A program made the translations under genes and the position numbers. A DNA stretch of 64,000 nucleotides from NCBI GenBank assembly GCA_900767645.1, contig CAAFZY010000005.1, positions 28,986-92,985 of the forward strand. The letters run 5' to 3'. This DNA comes from Alphaproteobacteria bacterium (lineage in GTDB: Bacteria; Pseudomonadota; Alphaproteobacteria; RF32; CAG-239). The notes under the pieces are model-generated. The model was not told where the DNA came from. It saw only the letters and a list, made by a program, of their open reading frames with translations, and searched no databases. This document shows, in pieces, positions 10,697-36,057 of this stretch. Position 1 is the stretch's first letter, and every line of letters starts with the position of its first letter.

Positions 10697-11623
10697 TTAG
10701 TGTTTTAGCAATTCGTTTTTATCAAAAACGTATTTTTCGGAGCAAAAACTGCAGGTCGCGGTAATTTTGCCGTCGTCTTCCGCCATGGAATTAATTTCTT
10801 CAGGCTTAAAGGCGCTTAAAGTGCCGAGTAATTTTTCACGACTGCAACGGCAACCGAAAGAATAAGCTTTTTCGCGTCCGATTTGCAGGTTGCTGCTGTG
10901 GAACAGGCGGTGCAAAATTTTAGGCGTTGATAAATCGGCGTTAAACATCTCGTCATCGGTTAAACTGCCGACAAAAACTTCAGCCTCATTCCAAAGTTCT
11001 TTAACCGCTTCTTCATCAAGATTTTGCTCATTGCCGCCTTTGAGCGGAACTTTTTGCATTAAAATTCCGGCGGCTTGCCAACTTTGACTTTCGCCCTCGG
11101 GGTGCTTTACAAAAAGTTTTAAGATGGTGTCAATTTGTTCCGATTGCTTAAAATAACGCAAAGCGAGTTCGGTTAAGGTTTTTCCTTGCAGGTCAACCAC
11201 GCCCTGATAGGTTTCGGTTTCATGTCCTTGGTCAATGGTAAACGCCATATATCCGCCGCCGACAAGGTGCGGAAGCTCCTCAATTATATCGCCGGTTTTG
11301 CGGAGCTTTTTGGCCTCAGCCAATTTTTGCTCGTCAAATTTGGCGCAAGCGCGGATTTTGCCCTCAGAGGTAACGTCGGCAACCAAAACCGAGACCGGTC
11401 CGTTGCCTTGAATTTGTAAGGTAAACAGCCCGTTATATTTTAGGGCGTCGGCAAGCAAAACCGACAAAGCCGTGGTTTCGGCCAAAGCCGAAGAAACATC
11501 TTGCGGATAATTGTGCTTGCCCAAAATGGTTTGCAAAACATCGTTCAAGCGAACAACCCGCCCCATAAAAGCGCCGTTGTTGGTGTAAAAAGATACACAA
11601 GTGTCAAAATTTTTATTGGTCAA
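10697..11623 (-). CDS. hslO: redox-regulated chaperone Hsp33
   Basis: C-terminal CRCS...CSFCS zinc centre and Hsp33 length. Confidence 0.85.
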   Translation of the reverse strand: MTNKNFDTCVSFYTNNGAFMGRVVRLNDVLQTILGKHNYPQDVSSALAETTALSVLLADALKYNGLFTLQIQGNGPVSVLVADVTSEGKIRACAKFDEQKLAEAKKLRKTGDIIEELPHLVGGGYMAFTIDQGHETETYQGVVDLQGKTLTELALRYFKQSEQIDTILKLFVKHPEGESQSWQAAGILMQKVPLKGGNEQNLDEEAVKELWNEAEVFVGSLTDDEMFNADLSTPKILHRLFHSSNLQIGREKAYSFGCRCSREKLLGTLSAFKPEEINSMAEDDGKITATCSFCSEKYVFDKNELLKH

Positions 11624-11690
11624 TTTTTTAATCCTTTGTATTATACTTTCAGTTATGTTGTAATCTAGTGTAAAATGAAAGAGTTTTCAA

Positions 11691-12248
11691 GTGTCAGATT
11701 TTGAAGAACAGCCTCGCAAGCCGAAAGCATTGCGCAAAATTACCAAGCAAAGGCTTAAAAATGTAGGTTTATATTACTTAAAGCGCTTTGAGTCGTCGGA
11801 GGATAATTTAAGGCAGGTGTTGCGGCGGCGGGTGAATGATTACGCTTATTATAATCCGGATTTTAACAAAACGGAGGCATACGGCTGGATAGAAGAAGTT
11901 TTAAGCGATTTTACCGGTTGGAAATATATTGACGATGAGCGATATGCCTCGCTTAAAGCGCGCGATTACTTAAATGCCGGAAAGCCTGAGCGCTACATTA
12001 AAGCTAAGCTCAAGCAAAAAGGGGTTGATGAAAACATAATTGCCGAAGTTTTAAGCAAGCAGGAATATGACTCCAAAGAAATGGCGCTTAACTTTGCCAA
12101 AAAGAAAAAAATCGGTCCGTTTCGCCCCGATGAAGAAAGCCGCAAGCTTAATCGGCAAAAAGATATGGGAACATTAATCCGCGCCGGCTTTGACTATGAC
12201 ACGGCGGCAGAGGTTTTAGGTGAGGAATTGTTTGGCGGAGAATACTAA
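11691..12248 (+). CDS. recX: RecA regulator RecX
   Basis: YIDDERYA...GxxRIxxELxxKGI-like repeats and a RecX-like C-terminus. Confidence 0.65.
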   Translation: MSDFEEQPRKPKALRKITKQRLKNVGLYYLKRFESSEDNLRQVLRRRVNDYAYYNPDFNKTEAYGWIEEVLSDFTGWKYIDDERYASLKARDYLNAGKPERYIKAKLKQKGVDENIIAEVLSKQEYDSKEMALNFAKKKKIGPFRPDEESRKLNRQKDMGTLIRAGFDYDTAAEVLGEELFGGEY

Positions 12249-28752: not shown

Positions 28753-28918
28753 GGTTCTTTGCAGAGGTATTATAAAAGGCACAAGTTTTATAAAAGGTGC
28801 CTGTTTACAAAATTACAAAAGGTGGCGGATTTTCCCCACCTTTTGGTGTTTTAAAAAACTTAAGGGAATTTTTATAAATACACAGTATCGTTATAATTGT
28901 TTAACGAAAGGAACAACT

Positions 28919-29830
28919 ATGGATAGGCAAGTAATTGAAATTATGAATGATGGCTTTATGCTGTCATTGCACCGAGGTTTTATTGTAGTTGAAAATAAAG
29001 AGCAGCAAATTAAACATGAAGTTCCGCTTGATAATGTGCTTGCGTTGGTGCTATCGGCCAACAATGTGGTGGTTTCAAAAAATATTATAAATGCAATTTG
29101 CGAGCAGGGCAGAAATGTTATTTTTTGTGATAAGACTTACCTGCCTTCCGCAATTACTATGCCATATACCGGACATTGGCTGATTGCTCCGCGAGTTAGG
29201 CAGCAGGTTGAATGCTCAAAACCATTACAAAAAAACTTATGGAAAAGTATTGTTCAGCATAAAATTTTGAATCAAGCTTTGGTGTTGGAATATTTTTTTC
29301 CGCAGCATGCCAATATTGAACGATTAAAACAATTATCAAAAGCAACGCTAAGTGATGATGCCAGAAATAATGAGGGAATCGCAGCGTCTATTTATTTTAA
29401 ATCATTATTCGGAAAACATTTTGTGCGCGACCGTCTTAATAATGATGTCAATATTTTGCTTAACTATACATACACGGTATTGCGCGCCGTTGTGGCCAGA
29501 GCAATTGCCGGAAGCGGATTATTGCCATATTTAGGGCTTAAGCATTGCACAAAGTCTAATCCGTTGCCGTTGGTTGATGATTTAATTGAACCGTTCAGAG
29601 CAGTGGCAGATAAAATTGTGTTTGAAGAGTTAAATAAGTTGGTGGATATAAGCAATATTGAATTAACTCCTGAAATTAAGCGCAATTTGGCAAAAGTTAT
29701 TACATATTCGGTGCAAACGGCTAAAGGCTGTATGTCATTAAATGATGCGCTTTGTGATTTTGCCGGTACTTTAGTTGCCAGTTTTGAGCAAAAGAAAGTA
29801 GCGTTAAAATATCCCGATATTTTGTTTTAA
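28919..29830 (+). CDS. cas1: CRISPR-associated endonuclease Cas1 (type II)
   Basis: FCDKTYLPS..., EGIAASIYFKSLFGKHFVR and LPYLGLKH motifs. The start was chosen at ATG 28919 (RBS AAAGGAAC) rather than at the ORF-track start 28739. Confidence 0.85.
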   Translation: MDRQVIEIMNDGFMLSLHRGFIVVENKEQQIKHEVPLDNVLALVLSANNVVVSKNIINAICEQGRNVIFCDKTYLPSAITMPYTGHWLIAPRVRQQVECSKPLQKNLWKSIVQHKILNQALVLEYFFPQHANIERLKQLSKATLSDDARNNEGIAASIYFKSLFGKHFVRDRLNNDVNILLNYTYTVLRAVVARAIAGSGLLPYLGLKHCTKSNPLPLVDDLIEPFRAVADKIVFEELNKLVDISNIELTPEIKRNLAKVITYSVQTAKGCMSLNDALCDFAGTLVASFEQKKVALKYPDILF

Positions 29831-29945
29831 ATAAAATAATGGGGGTAACTAAAGTCGCCCCCTCATCTTACGGCATTTTCAGCCTTATTATATATGTGTT
29901 GACCGTCTAATTAATCTCTGAAAAATAAGCCAACTTATATAACAA
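29831..29945 (-). ncRNA. predicted tracrRNA
   Basis: On the minus strand there is a TTGACA-16-TATATA promoter (29979-29952). It is followed by a 24-nt anti-repeat (UCAGAGAUUAAUUAGACGGUCAAC) perfectly complementary to repeat nt 7-30. A nexus-like AAGGCUGAAAAUGCCGU and a GGGGG...CCCCC hairpin plus U-run terminator follow, ending next to the cas1 stop. Confidence 0.6.
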
Positions 29946-30031
29946 TATTAGTATATAAAAAATTTAATTGAATTGTCAATTAAAATATTGTACCGTTGCT
30001 TATATTTCTATTAAAATTATAGGAGCTTGCT

Positions 30032-33000
30032 ATGAAATATTGTTTAGGACTTGATTTAGGCGTTGGCTCAATCGGTAGCGTGGTTGTGGAATTAGATAAA
30101 AATAATAATCCTGAAAATATTGCAGATGCCGGAGTGCGGATTTTTGAGGTATCGGAGGGCGCAGAAGAAAGGCGAACAAAACGCACGGCGCGTAAAAATT
30201 TAATCAGAACAAGAAAACGTTTAGAACTTTTAGCACAAAAATTGTATGAAAATAATTTATGGGTTAGTGCGAATCCTGAAGGCACAAATAATTTAAAATC
30301 AAAATCTCCTTATAAAATTCGTTATGATGCTTTAAATGGTAAGTTGGAAAATCAAAATTATATCGGGCGAGCAATTTTGCATTTGGCGAAACATCGTGGT
30401 GCCGGTTTTGTTTCAGCCGCTGAAGAAATGGAAGAAGAAGTTTTAGAAGAAGGCGAAAAATCTAAAGCTAAAAAATCTTCTTATGACATGATGCTTTATC
30501 ATTTAAAAGAAACAAATTCCAGAACTGTCGGTGAGTTTTTTTACAATAAAATAATCTCCGGTAAAGGAAATGATAAAACGGTTCGTCAGAAAAAATATGC
30601 CATTGAAAAGAATATTATAGATTACGCAATTCCGCGCTATTTGGTAAAAGATGAGTTCAATCAAATTTGGAATAAACAAGCCGAATTTTATCCACAGATG
30701 AAAAAAGAAAATTTAAAGAAAGAAATTTACGATATTTTGTTTTATGAACGTCCGGCAGCACCATACGCAACCGGTAAATGCATTTATTTCAGGGATGAAG
30801 ACCGCCTGCTAAAAGCGCACCCTCTTTCAGAGATGCGCCGTATTTATGAGGAAGTCAACAACATTCGTATTTTAAATGATATGAGTAAAAGAAAATTAAC
30901 CTTGGAAGAAAGAGATTCTATTATTAATGAGCTTTTGCTAAAAGGCCAAAATGCAGGTAAACAGGCAATCAAAAAATTGCTTAATTTGTCTGCGCAACAC
31001 AAAATTTCTTTGGTTGATGACAGAGTAATTAAAGCCTATTTATATTCTCGTCCTGAATTTGCAAATAACGAATATTTACAAAAGATGAATGAAGACGAGC
31101 TTTCATCTTTTATTGAGTTTTTGTCAGAACCAAAAATATCACAGGATAAAAATGGCCGTTTATACAATGAAGATTCGTTAATTGAGTATCTTAAGCCAAT
31201 TCTGAAAATTGATGACGAAAAAGAAATCGGCAACCTTTTAACCAAACTGCCCAAAGGGAGAGGAATGTTAGGTATAAGCGCCACAAAAATTATTCTGGAA
31301 AAATTAAAAGAAGATGTATTAACACATCGTGAAATTACCGATAAATTAGCCGAAACAGATAAACGATTTATGGCAGAGGAAGAAATAGCCCGCCAAAATC
31401 AGGGAAAATGTTTTCAACTTCCGTATTACGGGGAGATCTTGCAAACAGATACGGCTCCGCTTCCGCCTTTAATGATAAATAACAACAAGAGCCTTAACCA
31501 TGACGAGATAAAATGGGGTAAAATAGCCAATCCTGCCGTGCATATGATTCTCAATCAAATTCGCTTAGTTGTTAATGAAATTATCAAAATTTACGGCAAG
31601 CCTTACAATATCAATATTGAACTTGGTCGTGATGTCGGTATGTCAACAAAGAAGAAAAAAGAATTTGAAAACAGACAAAAACAAAATGAAAAACTTAATG
31701 AAGAGGCTAAAAAATATTTAAAAGAGCATAAAATTGTCATAAACAGTAAAAACATTTTAAAATACAAATTGGCCAAAGAGCAAGGCTGGAAAGATGCCTA
31801 TAATCCGACACAAAATATTTCTTCCGTATTTACGGGTATGGAAGTTGAGCATATTATTCCCCAAGCCAAAGGCGGAACAGATACATATAACAATCTCTGT
31901 TTAGTTAATAGCAATGACAACTTAAATAAAGGCGACCGATATGCCTATGAATATTTTGCAGAAACAAAAACACCGGAAGAAATCAGAGAAATTCTAAAAA
32001 ATGCCCGTTCCCGTACCCCTGACAAGTCTTGGCGTTTTGAAGCTGATGCGCGAGAAAAATATGAAGAAAGCGGCGATAAAGAAGAAAGTACCCGTTATTT
32101 GACGGATACCCGCTATGTTGCAAAAATGGCGGCACGTTATTTGCGAGCTATTGTTGATTGCCCTGATTGTGATGAAGTTATGGACAATCGTATTTTGGCA
32201 GTCAAAGGCGGGCAGACTGCAGAGTTGCGTAAGCGTTGGGATTTGCAAGGCTTGGAATATGATTTAATGGGCTTAAATATCCCGAGATATATTGATTGCG
32301 CGCCATATTGGCGGGAGTTGGATACCGGCGAAATAATTGACGGAGAGCAAAAGCCGGATATTGATGGTAATTGGAAATTTTATAATTGTGTAAAGAATCC
32401 TGAATGGTCGCCAAAGCCACGTATTGACCACAGACATCATGCGATGGATGCTATAACAGTTGCTTGTGCAAACCGTGGATTAATTCAGAAAATGGCAGAA
32501 GAAAATGATATTAACAAAATTCATTATCCGTTGCCTTTAACTTCTGTTGAATCTGTAGCAGATTTTAGAAGAAAAGTTATTTCCTGTCTAAAAGATATCA
32601 AAATTTCGCACAAACCTGATCACAGTAAGGCTGGACAATTACATAAAGAAACAGGCAGAACTGTTTTGTGTCAAAACCCTGATGATCCAAATTGTTTAAT
32701 CACTGTTTATTCTCGCAAAATTTTACAGGTGGTAAAATCTGCTAAAGATTTAACTAAACTGCTCATTCCAGAAACAATCAAGAATGAATGGCATGAGGAT
32801 ATTGCAGAATATAAAGCCAAACAGGCTAAGCTAGTACAAGATTTTGAACTTTATATGAATACGGCGGAGCAAATTTTAATTGCCGAAAATGAACAGGGTG
32901 TGGCAGAAGGTAAAAAGGAAATTAAAATTACTGAAGGAAGAATTTTGTTAAAGGCGTTCCGTATTATTCAAGATAAAGGCCTATGGAAAGGTGATAAATT

Positions 33001-33499
33001 TAGATGCTATGAAAATAATTCTTCTTTGGTTTATATCAAAAAACATGGTGTGGCTTATGAAGGGCGAAATAACCATTGTGTAGATTTTTACGTTAAAGAT
33101 GGTAAAGTCGGTTGGGAGGTTATTAAACGATTTGATGCAAATCAGCCTGATTTTGTTCCGCAATGGAAAAAAGACGGAGGAAAACTTATTTGGTCAGTTC
33201 AACAACGCGATATGTTGGAATTAGATACTCCTGATGAGTGGAAATCATATACCGATAAAGAGCGCTGTTTAGCTAAAGTAAAAAAGTTCAGCGATGGAGA
33301 ATTTAATATTGATTATATGGCTGACGCTCGTATGACATCGCCAAAAGATAAAAACTTAAAATATATGTTTGTTAATACTTTAAGAAAGGGGCTGGCATTT
33401 TTACTTCAGCATAAAGCGCGGAAAATAGAACTTACACCGTTTGGCAAAGTAAAGAAAAAACATAAGGTGTTGTGGAATGGCACGAAGACAGCGGCTTGA
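30032..33499 (+). CDS. cas9: Cas9 (type II-C-like, 1155 aa)
   Basis: RuvC-I GLDLGVGSIGSVVV. Arg-rich bridge helix. RuvC-II NINIELGRD. HNH VEHIIPQAKGG...NLCLVNSNDNLNKGDRYAYEYF. RuvC-III HRHHAMDAITVA. An RBS AGGAG precedes the ATG. Confidence 0.95.
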   Translation: MKYCLGLDLGVGSIGSVVVELDKNNNPENIADAGVRIFEVSEGAEERRTKRTARKNLIRTRKRLELLAQKLYENNLWVSANPEGTNNLKSKSPYKIRYDALNGKLENQNYIGRAILHLAKHRGAGFVSAAEEMEEEVLEEGEKSKAKKSSYDMMLYHLKETNSRTVGEFFYNKIISGKGNDKTVRQKKYAIEKNIIDYAIPRYLVKDEFNQIWNKQAEFYPQMKKENLKKEIYDILFYERPAAPYATGKCIYFRDEDRLLKAHPLSEMRRIYEEVNNIRILNDMSKRKLTLEERDSIINELLLKGQNAGKQAIKKLLNLSAQHKISLVDDRVIKAYLYSRPEFANNEYLQKMNEDELSSFIEFLSEPKISQDKNGRLYNEDSLIEYLKPILKIDDEKEIGNLLTKLPKGRGMLGISATKIILEKLKEDVLTHREITDKLAETDKRFMAEEEIARQNQGKCFQLPYYGEILQTDTAPLPPLMINNNKSLNHDEIKWGKIANPAVHMILNQIRLVVNEIIKIYGKPYNINIELGRDVGMSTKKKKEFENRQKQNEKLNEEAKKYLKEHKIVINSKNILKYKLAKEQGWKDAYNPTQNISSVFTGMEVEHIIPQAKGGTDTYNNLCLVNSNDNLNKGDRYAYEYFAETKTPEEIREILKNARSRTPDKSWRFEADAREKYEESGDKEESTRYLTDTRYVAKMAARYLRAIVDCPDCDEVMDNRILAVKGGQTAELRKRWDLQGLEYDLMGLNIPRYIDCAPYWRELDTGEIIDGEQKPDIDGNWKFYNCVKNPEWSPKPRIDHRHHAMDAITVACANRGLIQKMAEENDINKIHYPLPLTSVESVADFRRKVISCLKDIKISHKPDHSKAGQLHKETGRTVLCQNPDDPNCLITVYSRKILQVVKSAKDLTKLLIPETIKNEWHEDIAEYKAKQAKLVQDFELYMNTAEQILIAENEQGVAEGKKEIKITEGRILLKAFRIIQDKGLWKGDKFRCYENNSSLVYIKKHGVAYEGRNNHCVDFYVKDGKVGWEVIKRFDANQPDFVPQWKKDGGKLIWSVQQRDMLELDTPDEWKSYTDKERCLAKVKKFSDGEFNIDYMADARMTSPKDKNLKYMFVNTLRKGLAFLLQHKARKIELTPFGKVKKKHKVLWNGTKTAA

Positions 33500-33518
33500 A
33501 ACTTTAACCGGATGGTCT

Positions 33519-33839
33519 ATGATGTGGATAATATGTATGTTTGATATTCCGGTCAGGACTAAAACCGAAATGCGTAAAGCGACTCGTTTTCGTAATTTGC
33601 TTTTGGATAATGGTTTTGTTATGAAGCAGTTTTCGGTTTATATAAAACCGGTAAAAAGCTTAAATGTTGGACAAACAGTCACGAAAAGCCTTGCAAAGTA
33701 TATTCCGGATAACTCTTCTGTCTCTTTTTTATATATTACCGATAAACAATATTTAATGACGGAAAATTATTTGGGAAAAAATTATGAAGAGAATGAAGAA
33801 GAGAATCGCGAAAAAAATGGGCAATTATTGCTTTTTTAA
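33519..33839 (+). CDS. cas2: Cas2
   Basis: MMWIICMFDIPVRTKTEMRKATRFRNLLLDNGFVMKQFSVYIK matches the Cas2 beta1-alpha1 pattern. The ORF-track start 33477 would overlap cas9 by 23 nt, so the ATG at 33519 is preferred. Confidence 0.8.
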   Translation: MMWIICMFDIPVRTKTEMRKATRFRNLLLDNGFVMKQFSVYIKPVKSLNVGQTVTKSLAKYIPDNSSVSFLYITDKQYLMTENYLGKNYEENEEENREKNGQLLLF

Positions 33840-33865
33840 GGGTGTCTTTTAGCGTTTTTATAATA

Positions 33866-33900
33866 AACAAAAGCCTTGAAATGTTGTCATTTCAAGGCTT
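33866..33900 (-). terminator. hairpin terminator in the CRISPR leader, oriented for minus-strand (pre-crRNA) transcripts
   Basis: gccttgaaat-gttgtc-atttcaaggc stem-loop. On the minus strand it is followed by UUUUGUUUAUUAU. Confidence 0.5.
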
Positions 33901-33913
33901 TGCGCTATTAGAT

Positions 33914-34740
33914 AGCATATCAGAGATTAATTAGACGGTCAACTATAACTATTTCGCCCTCAATGTATCGATATTTTGTAGCATATCAGAGATTAATTAG
34001 ACGGTCAACTATAACGCTTGGTTCTGCGACGTCTCAAGGACATTTAGCATATCAGAGATTAATTAGACGGTCAACTATAACACAGTACCGGCAATGTTGT
34101 ATAGTCGTCACAGCATATCAGAGATTAATTAGACGGTCAACTATAACTGCCACCCATGAGCCCGCTTGCTATTTCTAGCATATCAGAGATTAATTAGACG
34201 GTCAACTATAACTAGCTGTCAATAGCTTTTTTATTATTTTCCAGCATATCAGAGATTAATTAGACGGTCAACTATAACTAATTTACTGTGCTCTTTTTGC
34301 TGAATAAAAGCATATCAGAGATTAATTAGACGGTCAACTATAACAGAAGTATGACGAGTACTCAGAATATTATAAGCATATCAGAGATTAATTAGACGGT
34401 CAACTATAACACAAGCTGCAGGATAGGCTTATTCAGCAAAGCATATCAGAGATTAATTAGACGGTCAACTATAACATGTTTTGCTCAATAACAGTTTTGT
34501 TAACTAGCATATCAGAGATTAATTAGACGGTCAACTATAACGCTAAAATGTTAGCGTTGGTCTTTATTGACAGCATATCAGAGATTAATTAGACGGTCAA
34601 CTATAACTATCCGGACATATTATACATCATGTCACCAAGCATATCAGAGATTAATTAGACGGTCAACTATAACAATTTTCGGACGGTGTCGGCGCATAAG
34701 TGAAGCATATCAGAGATTAATTAGACGGTCAACTTATAAC
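33914..34740 (-). CRISPR. CRISPR array of 13 copies of a 36-bp repeat and 12 spacers (ten of 30 bp, two of 29 bp). The repeat on the crRNA strand is GTTATAGTTGACCGTCTAATTAATCTCTGATATGCT.
   Basis: Repeat copies start at 33914, 33980, 34046, 34112, 34177, 34243, 34309, 34375, 34440, 34506, 34572, 34638 and 34704. The cas-distal repeat (34704-34740) carries a 1-nt insertion. The repeat begins with GTT in minus orientation and is complementary to the tracrRNA anti-repeat. Confidence 0.95.
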
Positions 34741-34755
34741 CAAGTATTGTTATAG

Positions 34756-34866
34756 CCTTTCGCTTGTAGTCGGTCTGGCTTGTAAGCTCTGCCTAAAGGC
34801 AATCGCTAACTGCGCTGCGGTCACTTGTTTTGTAAGCTCGCTGCGGTTGCTGTCGCTTTCCTTGCT
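34756..34866. repeat. partial copy (3' half) of the ~185-bp repeat element whose full copy is at 56968-57150
   Basis: cctttcgcttgtagtcggtctggct...gctgcggttgctgtcgctttcc is about 90% identical to 57031-57141. Confidence 0.7.
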
Positions 34867-35005
34867 CGCGAACAAAACTACGCTTTCGGCGATAAAAAAG
34901 CAGATAACAGCTTTTTTATCTTGAAACTCACTCCGTGAGTTCGAACCTCTACTTTCACTCATTATTTACAACAAAACCCGCCACAAGGGCGGGTGTTGTT
35001 GTAAA

Positions 35006-35026
35006 TGGCGGATAGAGTGAGATTAT
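35006..35026. repeat. duplicated 3' end of tRNA-Ser (aatggcggatagagtgagatt), att-like direct repeat
   Basis: A 21-nt exact copy of 35172-35192 lies about 150 bp from the tRNA. It is preceded by a GC hairpin. Confidence 0.65.
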
Positions 35027-35105
35027 TCCGCTGCGCTTCATTCACTGTGCTCATCGGCTATCGCCGACCGGCGTACTCCCGTCCGCCTTTCGCTTGTAGT
35101 CGAAC
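35027..35105. repeat. partial copy (5' part) of the ~185-bp repeat element
   Basis: attccgctgcgcttcattcactgtgctcatcggctatcgccgaccggcg...cctttcgcttgtagtcg is about 90% identical to 56968-57047. Confidence 0.7.
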
Positions 35106-35174
35106 TCACTTCTCGTGAGTTCTTATCTTCTGAATATGCCATTACAAAAAGCCCCATAAAGGGGCTTTTTGTAA

Positions 35175-35265
35175 TGGCGGATAGAGTGAGATTCGAACTC
35201 ACGGTACCCTTTGGAGGTACACACGATTTCCAATCGTGCGCCTTAGACCGCTCGGCCATCTATCC
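35175..35265 (-). tRNA. tRNA-Ser (anticodon GGA)
   Basis: 91-nt cloverleaf GGATAGATGGCCGAGCGG...UUGGAAA anticodon loop...long variable arm...GTTCGAATC...GCCA, reconstructed from the reverse complement. Confidence 0.85.
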
Positions 35266-35340
35266 ATAGCTACAACTTCTAAATCGTTTTTTGCTAATTG
35301 GCAAGCCTTTTTTTCTGCTATTTGGATTTTTATTATATTC

Positions 35341-36057
35341 TTAAAATTCGGAATGAAAAATGTTAATTCCGTTTTTTAAATTTTTTATCAGATTGCTCAA
35401 ACTTTTTTGTTGATGTTGTTCCGGTTTGGGCGCAAAAGCGCTACCGTAACTGACGGGGATTTTTATCCGAATCGATGATTTTCTTAAATTTACGGGCGTT
35501 ATTTGTTTGTAGTTCTTGAAATCGGTTTTGCCGTTAAAGCCTAATTCTTTTAAAAACGGGCTTAAAATTGTTTTGTATGTATCGCGTTTATCTCTGAAAA
35601 TAATATTGTCCCAAAACTCTTGAAATTTGGAGTTTTTGATTATGTTATGCTTAAAAATTATAAACCGCCCGTTATCTTCGGGAATATGGTTATATTTTTC
35701 CGTCATGCCCCAAAAATCATAATTTTGAAATTTAAGATACGCTGAAATATTTTGTAAATGATTAAGCGGAGCATAAGTGTTTTCATTGCAAAAAACCACT
35801 TCATCATATTCAAGCAGTTTTTGCCACCCTAAGTGATAAATTAAATATTGCCATGAACCGTAATCATTGCCATTATGAACTACCGAATCGGCGTAAACTA
35901 TACAGTCTTGCAGTTTTTGCAATTCAGATGCCGGCATTGTTCCGTTATTTAAATAATATACATCGCCGGTTTTTGTTAATCTTTGTAATAAAAAAACGGT
36001 ATAATCATTAAGAATATTACCGTTATTGCGTCCGACCGCAAGGTAAATTCTGCTCAT
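35341..36057 (-). CDS. hypothetical protein
   Basis: 238 aa with no recognised motifs. The region is AT-rich. Confidence 0.4.
   Translation of the reverse strand: MSRIYLAVGRNNGNILNDYTVFLLQRLTKTGDVYYLNNGTMPASELQKLQDCIVYADSVVHNGNDYGSWQYLIYHLGWQKLLEYDEVVFCNENTYAPLNHLQNISAYLKFQNYDFWGMTEKYNHIPEDNGRFIIFKHNIIKNSKFQEFWDNIIFRDKRDTYKTILSPFLKELGFNGKTDFKNYKQITPVNLRKSSIRIKIPVSYGSAFAPKPEQHQQKSLSNLIKNLKNGINIFHSEF

Follow-up and report, generated by a model that had tools for sequence, protein, structure and literature searches.

A predicted tracrRNA gene divergent from cas9 in a type II-C-like CRISPR-Cas9 locus, and its conservation among related loci

The 64,000-nt stretch of DNA analysed here (the window, whose positions are used for all coordinates) carries a CRISPR locus (CRISPR, clustered palindromic repeats that are short and regularly interspaced) in the order cas1, a short RNA element, cas9, cas2 and a repeat array, which is not the canonical cas9-cas1-cas2 operon order. 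The element lies between cas1 and cas9, at 29831-29979 on the minus strand, and is very probably the gene of the trans-activating CRISPR RNA (tracrRNA) of a type II-C-like CRISPR-Cas9 system. This assignment, made from sequence, is based on the position, strand, promoter, anti-repeat, nexus and terminator, which are conserved in about 60 loci and covary as the parts of an RNA pairing with the local CRISPR RNA (crRNA) repeat would. Every part that the original prediction had placed in this interval is found there. In the direction of transcription the parts are:

29974-29979, minus strand: -35 hexamer TTGACA, identified from sequence, with a conserved equivalent in relatives
29950-29957, minus strand: -10 region with overlapping TATATA (29957-29952, 16-nt spacer) and TATACT (29955-29950, 18-nt spacer)
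29922-29943, minus strand: 5′ leader, a repeat-like segment GUUAUAUAAGUUGGC followed by a U-rich linker, with a putative role discussed below
29898-29921, minus strand: anti-repeat TCAGAGATTAATTAGACGGTCAAC, a 24-nt perfect complement (24/24) of crRNA repeat nt 7-30
29887-29897, minus strand: bulge ACAUA (29897-29893) and lower-stem strand UAUAAU (29892-29887), the latter predicted to pair with repeat nt 1-6 (GUUAUA)
29870-29886, minus strand: nexus-like hairpin AAGGCTGAAAATGCCGT (also written AAGGCUGAAAAUGCCGU), stem GGC/GCC
29829-29869, minus strand: linker AAGAUGA, predicted terminator hairpin (GGGGG...CCCCC) and U-rich tail

The anti-repeat is complementary to repeat nt 7-30 only when the repeat is read on the minus strand, GTTATAGTTGACCGTCTAATTAATCTCTGATATGCT. 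A search of the 64-kb window for the 24-mer core of the repeat, allowing up to 3 mismatches, finds 14 copies, of which 13 lie in the array and one is the anti-repeat, the sole off-array copy; shuffled sequence gives none. The promoter originally proposed, TTGACA-16-TATATA, is present, and the overlapping TATACT offers a further choice of -10 box. TTGACA-18-TATACT agrees with the consensus at 11/12 positions and is the top promoter-like site in a consensus scan of the 7 kb from 28400 to 35400. The -10 box of the relatives ends 24-32 nt before the anti-repeat, and this conserved distance would place the start of transcription in the window at about 29943-29946, giving an RNA of about 113-118 nt, in line with the roughly 115 nt of the original prediction. 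A second promoter-like site, TTAATA-16-TACAAT, lies upstream at 30014-29987, and TATAAT-like boxes are found upstream of the -35 box in many relatives; these may be merely AT-rich sequence upstream of the promoter.

At the other end of the element GGGGG (29862-29858) pairs with CCCCC (29845-29841), with a 12-nt apical region between them in which folding adds three inner pairs (GAC/GUU) around a UUUA loop. The tail ATTATTTTATTT at 29840-29829 overlaps the cas1 stop codon (29828-29830), as had been claimed for the predicted intrinsic terminator. The consensus matches of both promoter and terminator are present and conserved in the relatives. A stretch of 122 nt folds at -34 kcal/mol (z = -3.99), a stability reached by none of 200 shuffles. 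When the crRNA is co-folded with the 115-nt RNA in silico, the 24-bp duplex, the nexus and the terminator are all formed, with a net binding gain of -28.4 kcal/mol. A full-text literature search for the repeat or the anti-repeat sequence found nothing.

The Cas9 of this locus had been described as a new orthologue. It is uncharacterised, but it is not unseen, one identical protein and more than 600 relatives being present in the databases. A genome scan yielded 77 loci whose Cas9 is 33-91% identical to that of the window (labelled L001-L077), mostly from gut and rumen metagenome assemblies of Alphaproteobacteria and also from Planctomycetes and Desulfovibrionaceae. A common module is found at about 60 related cas9 loci (Cas9 33-100% identical), 63-152 nt upstream of cas9; in the window it lies 111 nt upstream and is divergent from the gene. 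In nearly every locus that bears an array, the best off-array match to the locus's own repeat is on the minus strand within this same range of distances. The common layout begins with a TTGAC(A/T) -35 box, a -10 box, a leader, a run of U and the anti-repeat, and continues with ACAUAUAUAAU, AAGGC...GCCGUAAGAUGA and a GC-rich hairpin with a U-tract. The -35 box stands at the equivalent place in 53 of the 65 distinct upstream regions.

Pairing partners have changed in concert across these loci. In the 24-bp core of the repeat:anti-repeat duplex, 35 distinct combinations give 773 Watson-Crick, 30 G:U and 13 mismatched cells. Both sides of the duplex change together in L028, L031, L042, L045, L060, L065, L066 and the Desulfovibrionaceae loci, the coordinated changes including AAUCAG (L028), AACUAAAC (L031), GAUUGAUUGAAC (L042), UUUGGGAUUGCUUGAAC (L060 and L065) and AGCAGGAUU (Desulfovibrionaceae). 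RNAalifold applied to an alignment of 63 sequences recovers the nexus and terminator stems. The covariation of the hairpins was tested on 10 pairs specified by us, three in the nexus and seven in the terminator stem, and all of them show compensatory changes in which both sides are altered (3/3 for the nexus-like hairpin at 29886-29870 and 7/7 for the terminator). The proportion of paired cells is 95.9% and falls to 50-63% if one partner is shifted by 1-3 columns relative to the other; none of 500 shuffles matches the observed values.

The comparison also sets the geometry below the core duplex. A hexamer complementary to repeat nt 1-6 is always found directly 5′ of AA(G/A)(G/A), and it follows the repeat through changes such as GUCAUA:UAUGAU (L053, L057), GUCAUA:UAUGAC (L066), GUUAUA:UAUAAC (L036), GUUGUA:UACAAC (L072) and GUUUUA:UAAAAC (L074, L076). 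The favoured duplex for the window, as predicted from these data, therefore bulges by 5 nt on the tracrRNA side (ACAUA), and its lower stem of 6 bp, GUUAUA:UAUAAU, abuts AAGG. The bulge of 3 nt followed by four pairs to the 5′ end of the repeat, as first proposed, is another register of the same bases; it was rejected in favour of 5 nt and 6 bp on the comparative data.

The strand of transcription can be approached from the array as well. Read on the minus strand, the anti-repeat has the letters that the repeats have on the plus strand, so that pairing of the RNA with the crRNA requires minus-strand transcription of both. Only on the minus strand is the anti-repeat followed by a lower-stem complement, a nexus hairpin and a terminator. 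All 13 repeats carry a promoter-like motif, TTGACC-17-TG-n-TATGCT, on the minus strand. Across loci the middle of the last six repeat bases varies while TAnnnT is kept (TATGCT, TATAAT, TAAGCT, TACAAT, TAAACT), and this pattern is, to judge from the sequences, the behaviour of a -10 box and not of a paired RNA segment. Single transitions between anti-repeat and repeat give 30 G:U and 8 A:C combinations in the minus-strand reading; the plus-strand reading reverses these numbers.

In such a minus-strand array the first transcribed repeat is the one farthest from cas2, at 34705-34741. It contains a 1-nt insertion (GTTATA-A-GTTGACC in the crRNA sense) at the junction of lower and upper stem, upstream of the embedded -35 box. 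Type II-C arrays are described by Feussner et al. (2025, PMC12080349) as having a promoter in each repeat, new spacers joining at the last repeat and mutations building up in the first (‘extra’) one, and the mutated repeat of the window fits this description by analogy. A mutated repeat is also used as a marker of the last repeat, and thus of direction, but this rule gives the wrong direction for the arrays of Neisseria and Campylobacter, which are transcribed opposite to the cas operon (Chylinski et al. 2013). It was rejected here as a direction marker because it fails for type II-C arrays. The sequence features thus support a minus-strand origin for both kinds of RNA, crRNA and tracrRNA, which would match the type II-C systems of Neisseria and Campylobacter.

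Taken together, these elements suggest the following scheme. A sigma-70 promoter (TTGACA, TATACT) would start an RNA of about 115 nt near 29943 on the minus strand, divergent from cas9, and the U-tract would end its transcription at the cas1 stop codon. The array (33914-34741) would be read on its minus strand to give the crRNAs, transcription of each one beginning at a promoter within the repeat before it. The anti-repeat (29921-29898) would pair with nt 7-30 of the crRNA and, after the 5-nt bulge, UAUAAU would pair with repeat nt 1-6. Cas9 would bind a scaffold made up of two hairpins, the AAGGC...GCCGU nexus and the GC-rich terminator. Transcription, any processing by RNase III, Cas9 binding and cleavage are steps that we infer by analogy with Neisseria meningitidis and Campylobacter jejuni.

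A number of points weigh against this assignment. Because the related loci share ancestry, the cells counted are more numerous than the independent events behind them. Energy calculations by themselves do not predict the AU-rich lower stem, whose support accordingly comes from the comparison of loci. The putative promoter and terminator are assigned by consensus matches only, and the 12-nt apical region of the terminator exceeds the loop limit of a simple terminator scan. A permissive Rfam scan of 28000-36000 gave no match in 29831-29979 even at E values up to 10; an Rfam match does not define the class, however, since the tracrRNAs of different Cas9 lineages have little sequence in common. 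Searches with the spacers yielded no protospacer, so that no protospacer adjacent motif (PAM) was obtained and there was no independent check of spacer orientation. The 862 unique spacers of the window and its relatives gave only chance-level matches of 16-22 nt when compared with all fetched loci and the window, the arrays of the window and of L008 reached a best E of about 0.2 against 50,697 phage records, and four exact 22-mers from the spacers of the window were absent from IMG/VR. One spacer of L008 (9084-9117) is 88% identical over 34 nt to the gut microviruses Dulem virus 94 and Rattus norvegicus microvirus, a match that with its E of about 0.2 is non-significant on its own. Finally, the non-canonical position of cas1 means that the locus has been rearranged, and it might be inactive.

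This last point leads to the view that the element is a decayed orphan repeat or pseudo-tracrRNA of no present function, the working tracrRNA being encoded elsewhere or the system being dead. The removal of cas1 from beyond the array to a place upstream of the element would agree with decay, as would the mutation of the distal repeat and the failure of the searches to find protospacers. A mutated first repeat is normal in type II-C arrays, however, and a decaying element would hardly show a perfect 24-nt match with no other off-array copy in 64 kb, nor would the whole module be conserved, with compensatory changes, down to a Cas9 identity of 33%. The cas9, cas1 and cas2 genes are moreover intact ORFs (open reading frames) with family-level scores, and decay is given very little credence here. 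Just as improbable is transcription of both array and element from the plus strand, with 29898-29921 belonging to the 5′ untranslated region or promoter of cas9 and no separate RNA gene. A weak plus-strand promoter-like sequence (TTGACC-16-AAAAAT, 29899-29926) does point at cas9, most relatives have no gene upstream, so that the cas9 promoter must overlap the region, and the mutated-last-repeat rule would predict an array transcribed from the plus strand. That rule is known to fail for type II-C arrays, and a cas9 promoter overlapping the tracrRNA gene would be compatible with the tracrRNA. Reading the plus strand also leaves the anti-repeat without a following nexus, terminator or repeat-end complement and turns the wobble pairs into A:C mismatches (30 vs 8), while the U-tract and the covarying hairpins belong to the minus-strand reading alone. 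As a separate observation, the complement of the anti-repeat keeps the TTGACC of the repeat-embedded promoter and is followed 16 nt on, toward cas9, by a conserved A-run (AAAAAT); 29899-29926 on the plus strand could be a weak cas9 promoter that overlaps the tracrRNA gene.

A further proposal adds to the explanation of the element as a tracrRNA gene and is compatible with it. The leader GUUAUAUAAGUUGGC is a degenerate copy of repeat nt 1-13 (GUUAUAGUUGACC), and in the predicted fold of the window (leader GUUAUA-UAA-GUUGGCU) its partners are the lower-stem strand and the anti-repeat's 3′ end, in the register of crRNA nt 1-13. A second role of the tracrRNA can be imagined in which the repeat-like leader folds back over the stretch that runs from the anti-repeat's 3′ end through the bulge to the lower-stem strand, forming a hairpin resembling a single guide RNA (sgRNA) that lacks a guide. 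Such a hairpin could hold back the anti-repeat or be loaded into Cas9 with no guide, as in the natural single guide tracr-L of S. pyogenes. A helix of at least 8 pairs between leader and target is present in the minimum-energy fold of 55/63 distinct loci, with a mean z of -2.2 relative to dinucleotide shuffles, and in 52/63 the plus-strand fold is the less stable of the two. The leaders also track divergent targets in L009, L028, L053 and L057, and the predicted start of transcription is the first base of the leader helix. Against this, significance at the level of single loci is modest, many having shuffle fractions of 0.05-0.35, and AT-rich sequence pairs readily by chance. The target strand is nearly invariant, which makes real covariation scarce. 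Only the window and L007 reproduce the crRNA register exactly, the leaders of most groups being paired to bulge bases instead of copying that register. The predicted start leaves no spacer-like segment, so that promoter targeting of the tracr-L type is not supported, and it is only in type II-A that natural single guides have been demonstrated. The second role is accordingly put forward as a speculative addition that is probably wrong. A little more doubtful still is the specific version in which the conserved leader would keep the tracrRNA, when alone, in a guide-less sgRNA-like or self-sequestered state until a full crRNA displaces it. If true, the leader fold would be the type II-C counterpart of the natural single guides and could tune Cas9 loading, tracrRNA stability or cas9 expression.

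The genes and other features of the locus around the predicted tracrRNA gene are:

28919-29830, plus strand: cas1, 303 aa, convergent with the tracrRNA gene
30032-33499, plus strand: cas9, 1155 aa, with RuvC_III, HNH and Cas9_a domains (TIGR01865, 485 bits)
33477-33839, plus strand: cas2, 120 aa
33870-33901, no strand assigned: hairpin between cas2 and array, 14-bp stem GCCTTGAAAT...ATTTCAAGGC, terminator-like, with a T-rich tail on the minus strand in the window
33914-34741, minus strand (crRNA reading): CRISPR array of 13 repeats of 36 nt and 12 spacers of about 30 nt

With Pfam and NCBIfam, no csn2 or cas4 is found among the neighbouring ORFs, and a content of cas9, cas1 and cas2 is that of type II-C; on gene content the locus is therefore assigned a type II-C-like subtype in spite of its non-canonical gene order. 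The flanking genes are of the FadL, HxlR and RgpF types, together with one tRNA. The ORF listed for cas1, 28739-29830 on the plus strand, contains a Cas1 domain and matches the NMENI-type Cas1 model. Its start at 28739 would give 363 aa; the start was reset to 28919 because the alignment with relatives begins only at residue 61 and 303 aa is also the length obtained by an independent gene call, and the 60-codon extension at 28739-28918 is probably spurious and non-coding. A hydrophobic ORF of 95 aa at 28465-28752 has no family match and among the relatives is conserved only in L007. Among 12 homologues of Cas9, residues of catalytic type such as D8 and H607 do not vary. The closest solved structures are the type II-C enzymes Nme1Cas9 and Nme2Cas9, GeoCas9 and CjCas9, the best sequence matches in the PDB being Nme Cas9; the best match is distant (E 1e-44), with its top-scoring stretch at residues 494-739.

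The detachment of cas1 from cas9-cas2 is found throughout this Cas9 family. Most relatives have the order tracrRNA (minus), cas9 (plus), cas2 (plus), array, cas1 (minus), and a plus-strand cas1 upstream of the tracrRNA gene and convergent with it is seen in the window and in L007, L017, L051, L053, L057 and L058. In L008 cas1 (11249-12202, minus strand) ends within the array, its TGA stop codon lying inside the TTGAC of a degenerate first repeat (11249-11262), and coordinates in L004, L029, L036 and L039 suggest the same overlap of cas1 stop and extra repeat. No description was found of an extra repeat that overlaps the cas1 stop codon, the arrangement of most relatives here. Near-complete copies of the repeat are located off the main arrays in L009 (4032-4063, plus strand, about 940 nt upstream of cas9) and L020 (10103-10131) and may be orphan repeats or fragments of split arrays.

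Both sides of the array in the window show additional features. The hairpin at 33870-33901 occurs in most relatives, between cas2 and the array end that acquires spacers, and its stem sequence is conserved. It looks like a bidirectional terminator, and the conserved stem sequence suggests a further role, perhaps leader-like. As a test of the transcribed strand it was set aside as non-decisive, being conserved but bidirectional-looking in 30/54 loci. Beyond the array, a tRNA-Ser(GGA) lies at 35175-35265 on the minus strand, with an exact 21-nt copy of the tRNA 3′ end at 35004-35024. A 27-nt direct repeat is present at 34755 and 35085, and the interval 34755-35265 also contains two terminator-like palindromes. 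The copy of the tRNA end and the direct repeat look like the scars of an element integrated beside the array and may be a mark of rearrangement.

The analysis provides a guide-RNA design, backed by the comparison of loci, for a large uncharacterised Cas9 clade of more than 600 relatives, mostly in metagenome-assembled genomes of gut and rumen Alphaproteobacteria. In the dual-RNA form, a crRNA composed of the 3′ 21-24 nt of a spacer and GUUAUAGUUGACCGUCUAAUUAAUCUCUGA is combined with the 115-nt tracrRNA. The fused sgRNA form is N22-24-GUUAUAGUUGACCGUCUAAUUAAU-GAAA-AUUAAUUAGACGGUCAACACAUAUAUAAUAAGGCUGAAAAUGCCGUAAGAUGAGGGGGCGACUUUAGUUACCCCCAUUAUUUU. The fused designs fold as intended in silico. 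Their practical value is uncertain, since the enzyme, at 1155 aa, is not compact and no PAM was obtained. The tracrRNA itself is a routine component of CRISPR systems, and the only unusual points are the displaced cas1 and the self-pairing leader.

Among the closest known systems is the type II-C tracrRNA of Neisseria meningitidis (Nme) with Nme1Cas9, which also pairs with a 36-nt repeat and has a 6-bp lower stem directly 5′ of AAGGC. The lower stem and the start of the nexus read UACAAU-AAGGCC in Nme and UAUAAU-AAGGCU here, and over a longer stretch UAUAAU-AAGGCUGAAAAUGCCGUAA of the window parallels UACAAU-AAGGCCGUCUGAAAAGAUGUGCCGCAA of the Nme1Cas9 sgRNA. Both share a GAAAA segment in the nexus loop and the closing sequence GCCG(C/U)AA. 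The Nme array is transcribed opposite to the cas operon, in agreement with the minus-strand reading of the present array. In contrast to Nme, the RNA predicted here has a nexus stem of 3 bp, a single 3′ hairpin after it and, at its 5′ end, about 22 nt of repeat-like leader; the gene downstream of cas9 is not cas1, and the two Cas9 proteins are only distantly related (E 1e-44). The arrays of C. jejuni and N. meningitidis, as summarised by Feussner et al. (PMC12080349), have promoters embedded in their repeats; each repeat of the window carries a promoter-like motif on the strand that would give the crRNA, and the predicted first transcribed (‘extra’) repeat is likewise the mutated one. The leader has its closest parallel in tracr-L of S. 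pyogenes (bioRxiv 10.1101/2020.05.21.102756), which likewise contains, 5′ of its anti-repeat, a segment resembling the repeat and able to fold onto the anti-repeat; the tracr-L gene, too, is upstream of cas9 and divergent from it. Workman et al. (bioRxiv 10.1101/2020.05.21.102756) found that tracr-L is made from a second, upstream promoter and contains an 11-nt targeting sequence that matches the cas9 promoter beside a PAM. Unlike tracr-L, the RNA predicted here would have only 0-3 nt 5′ of its repeat-like segment.

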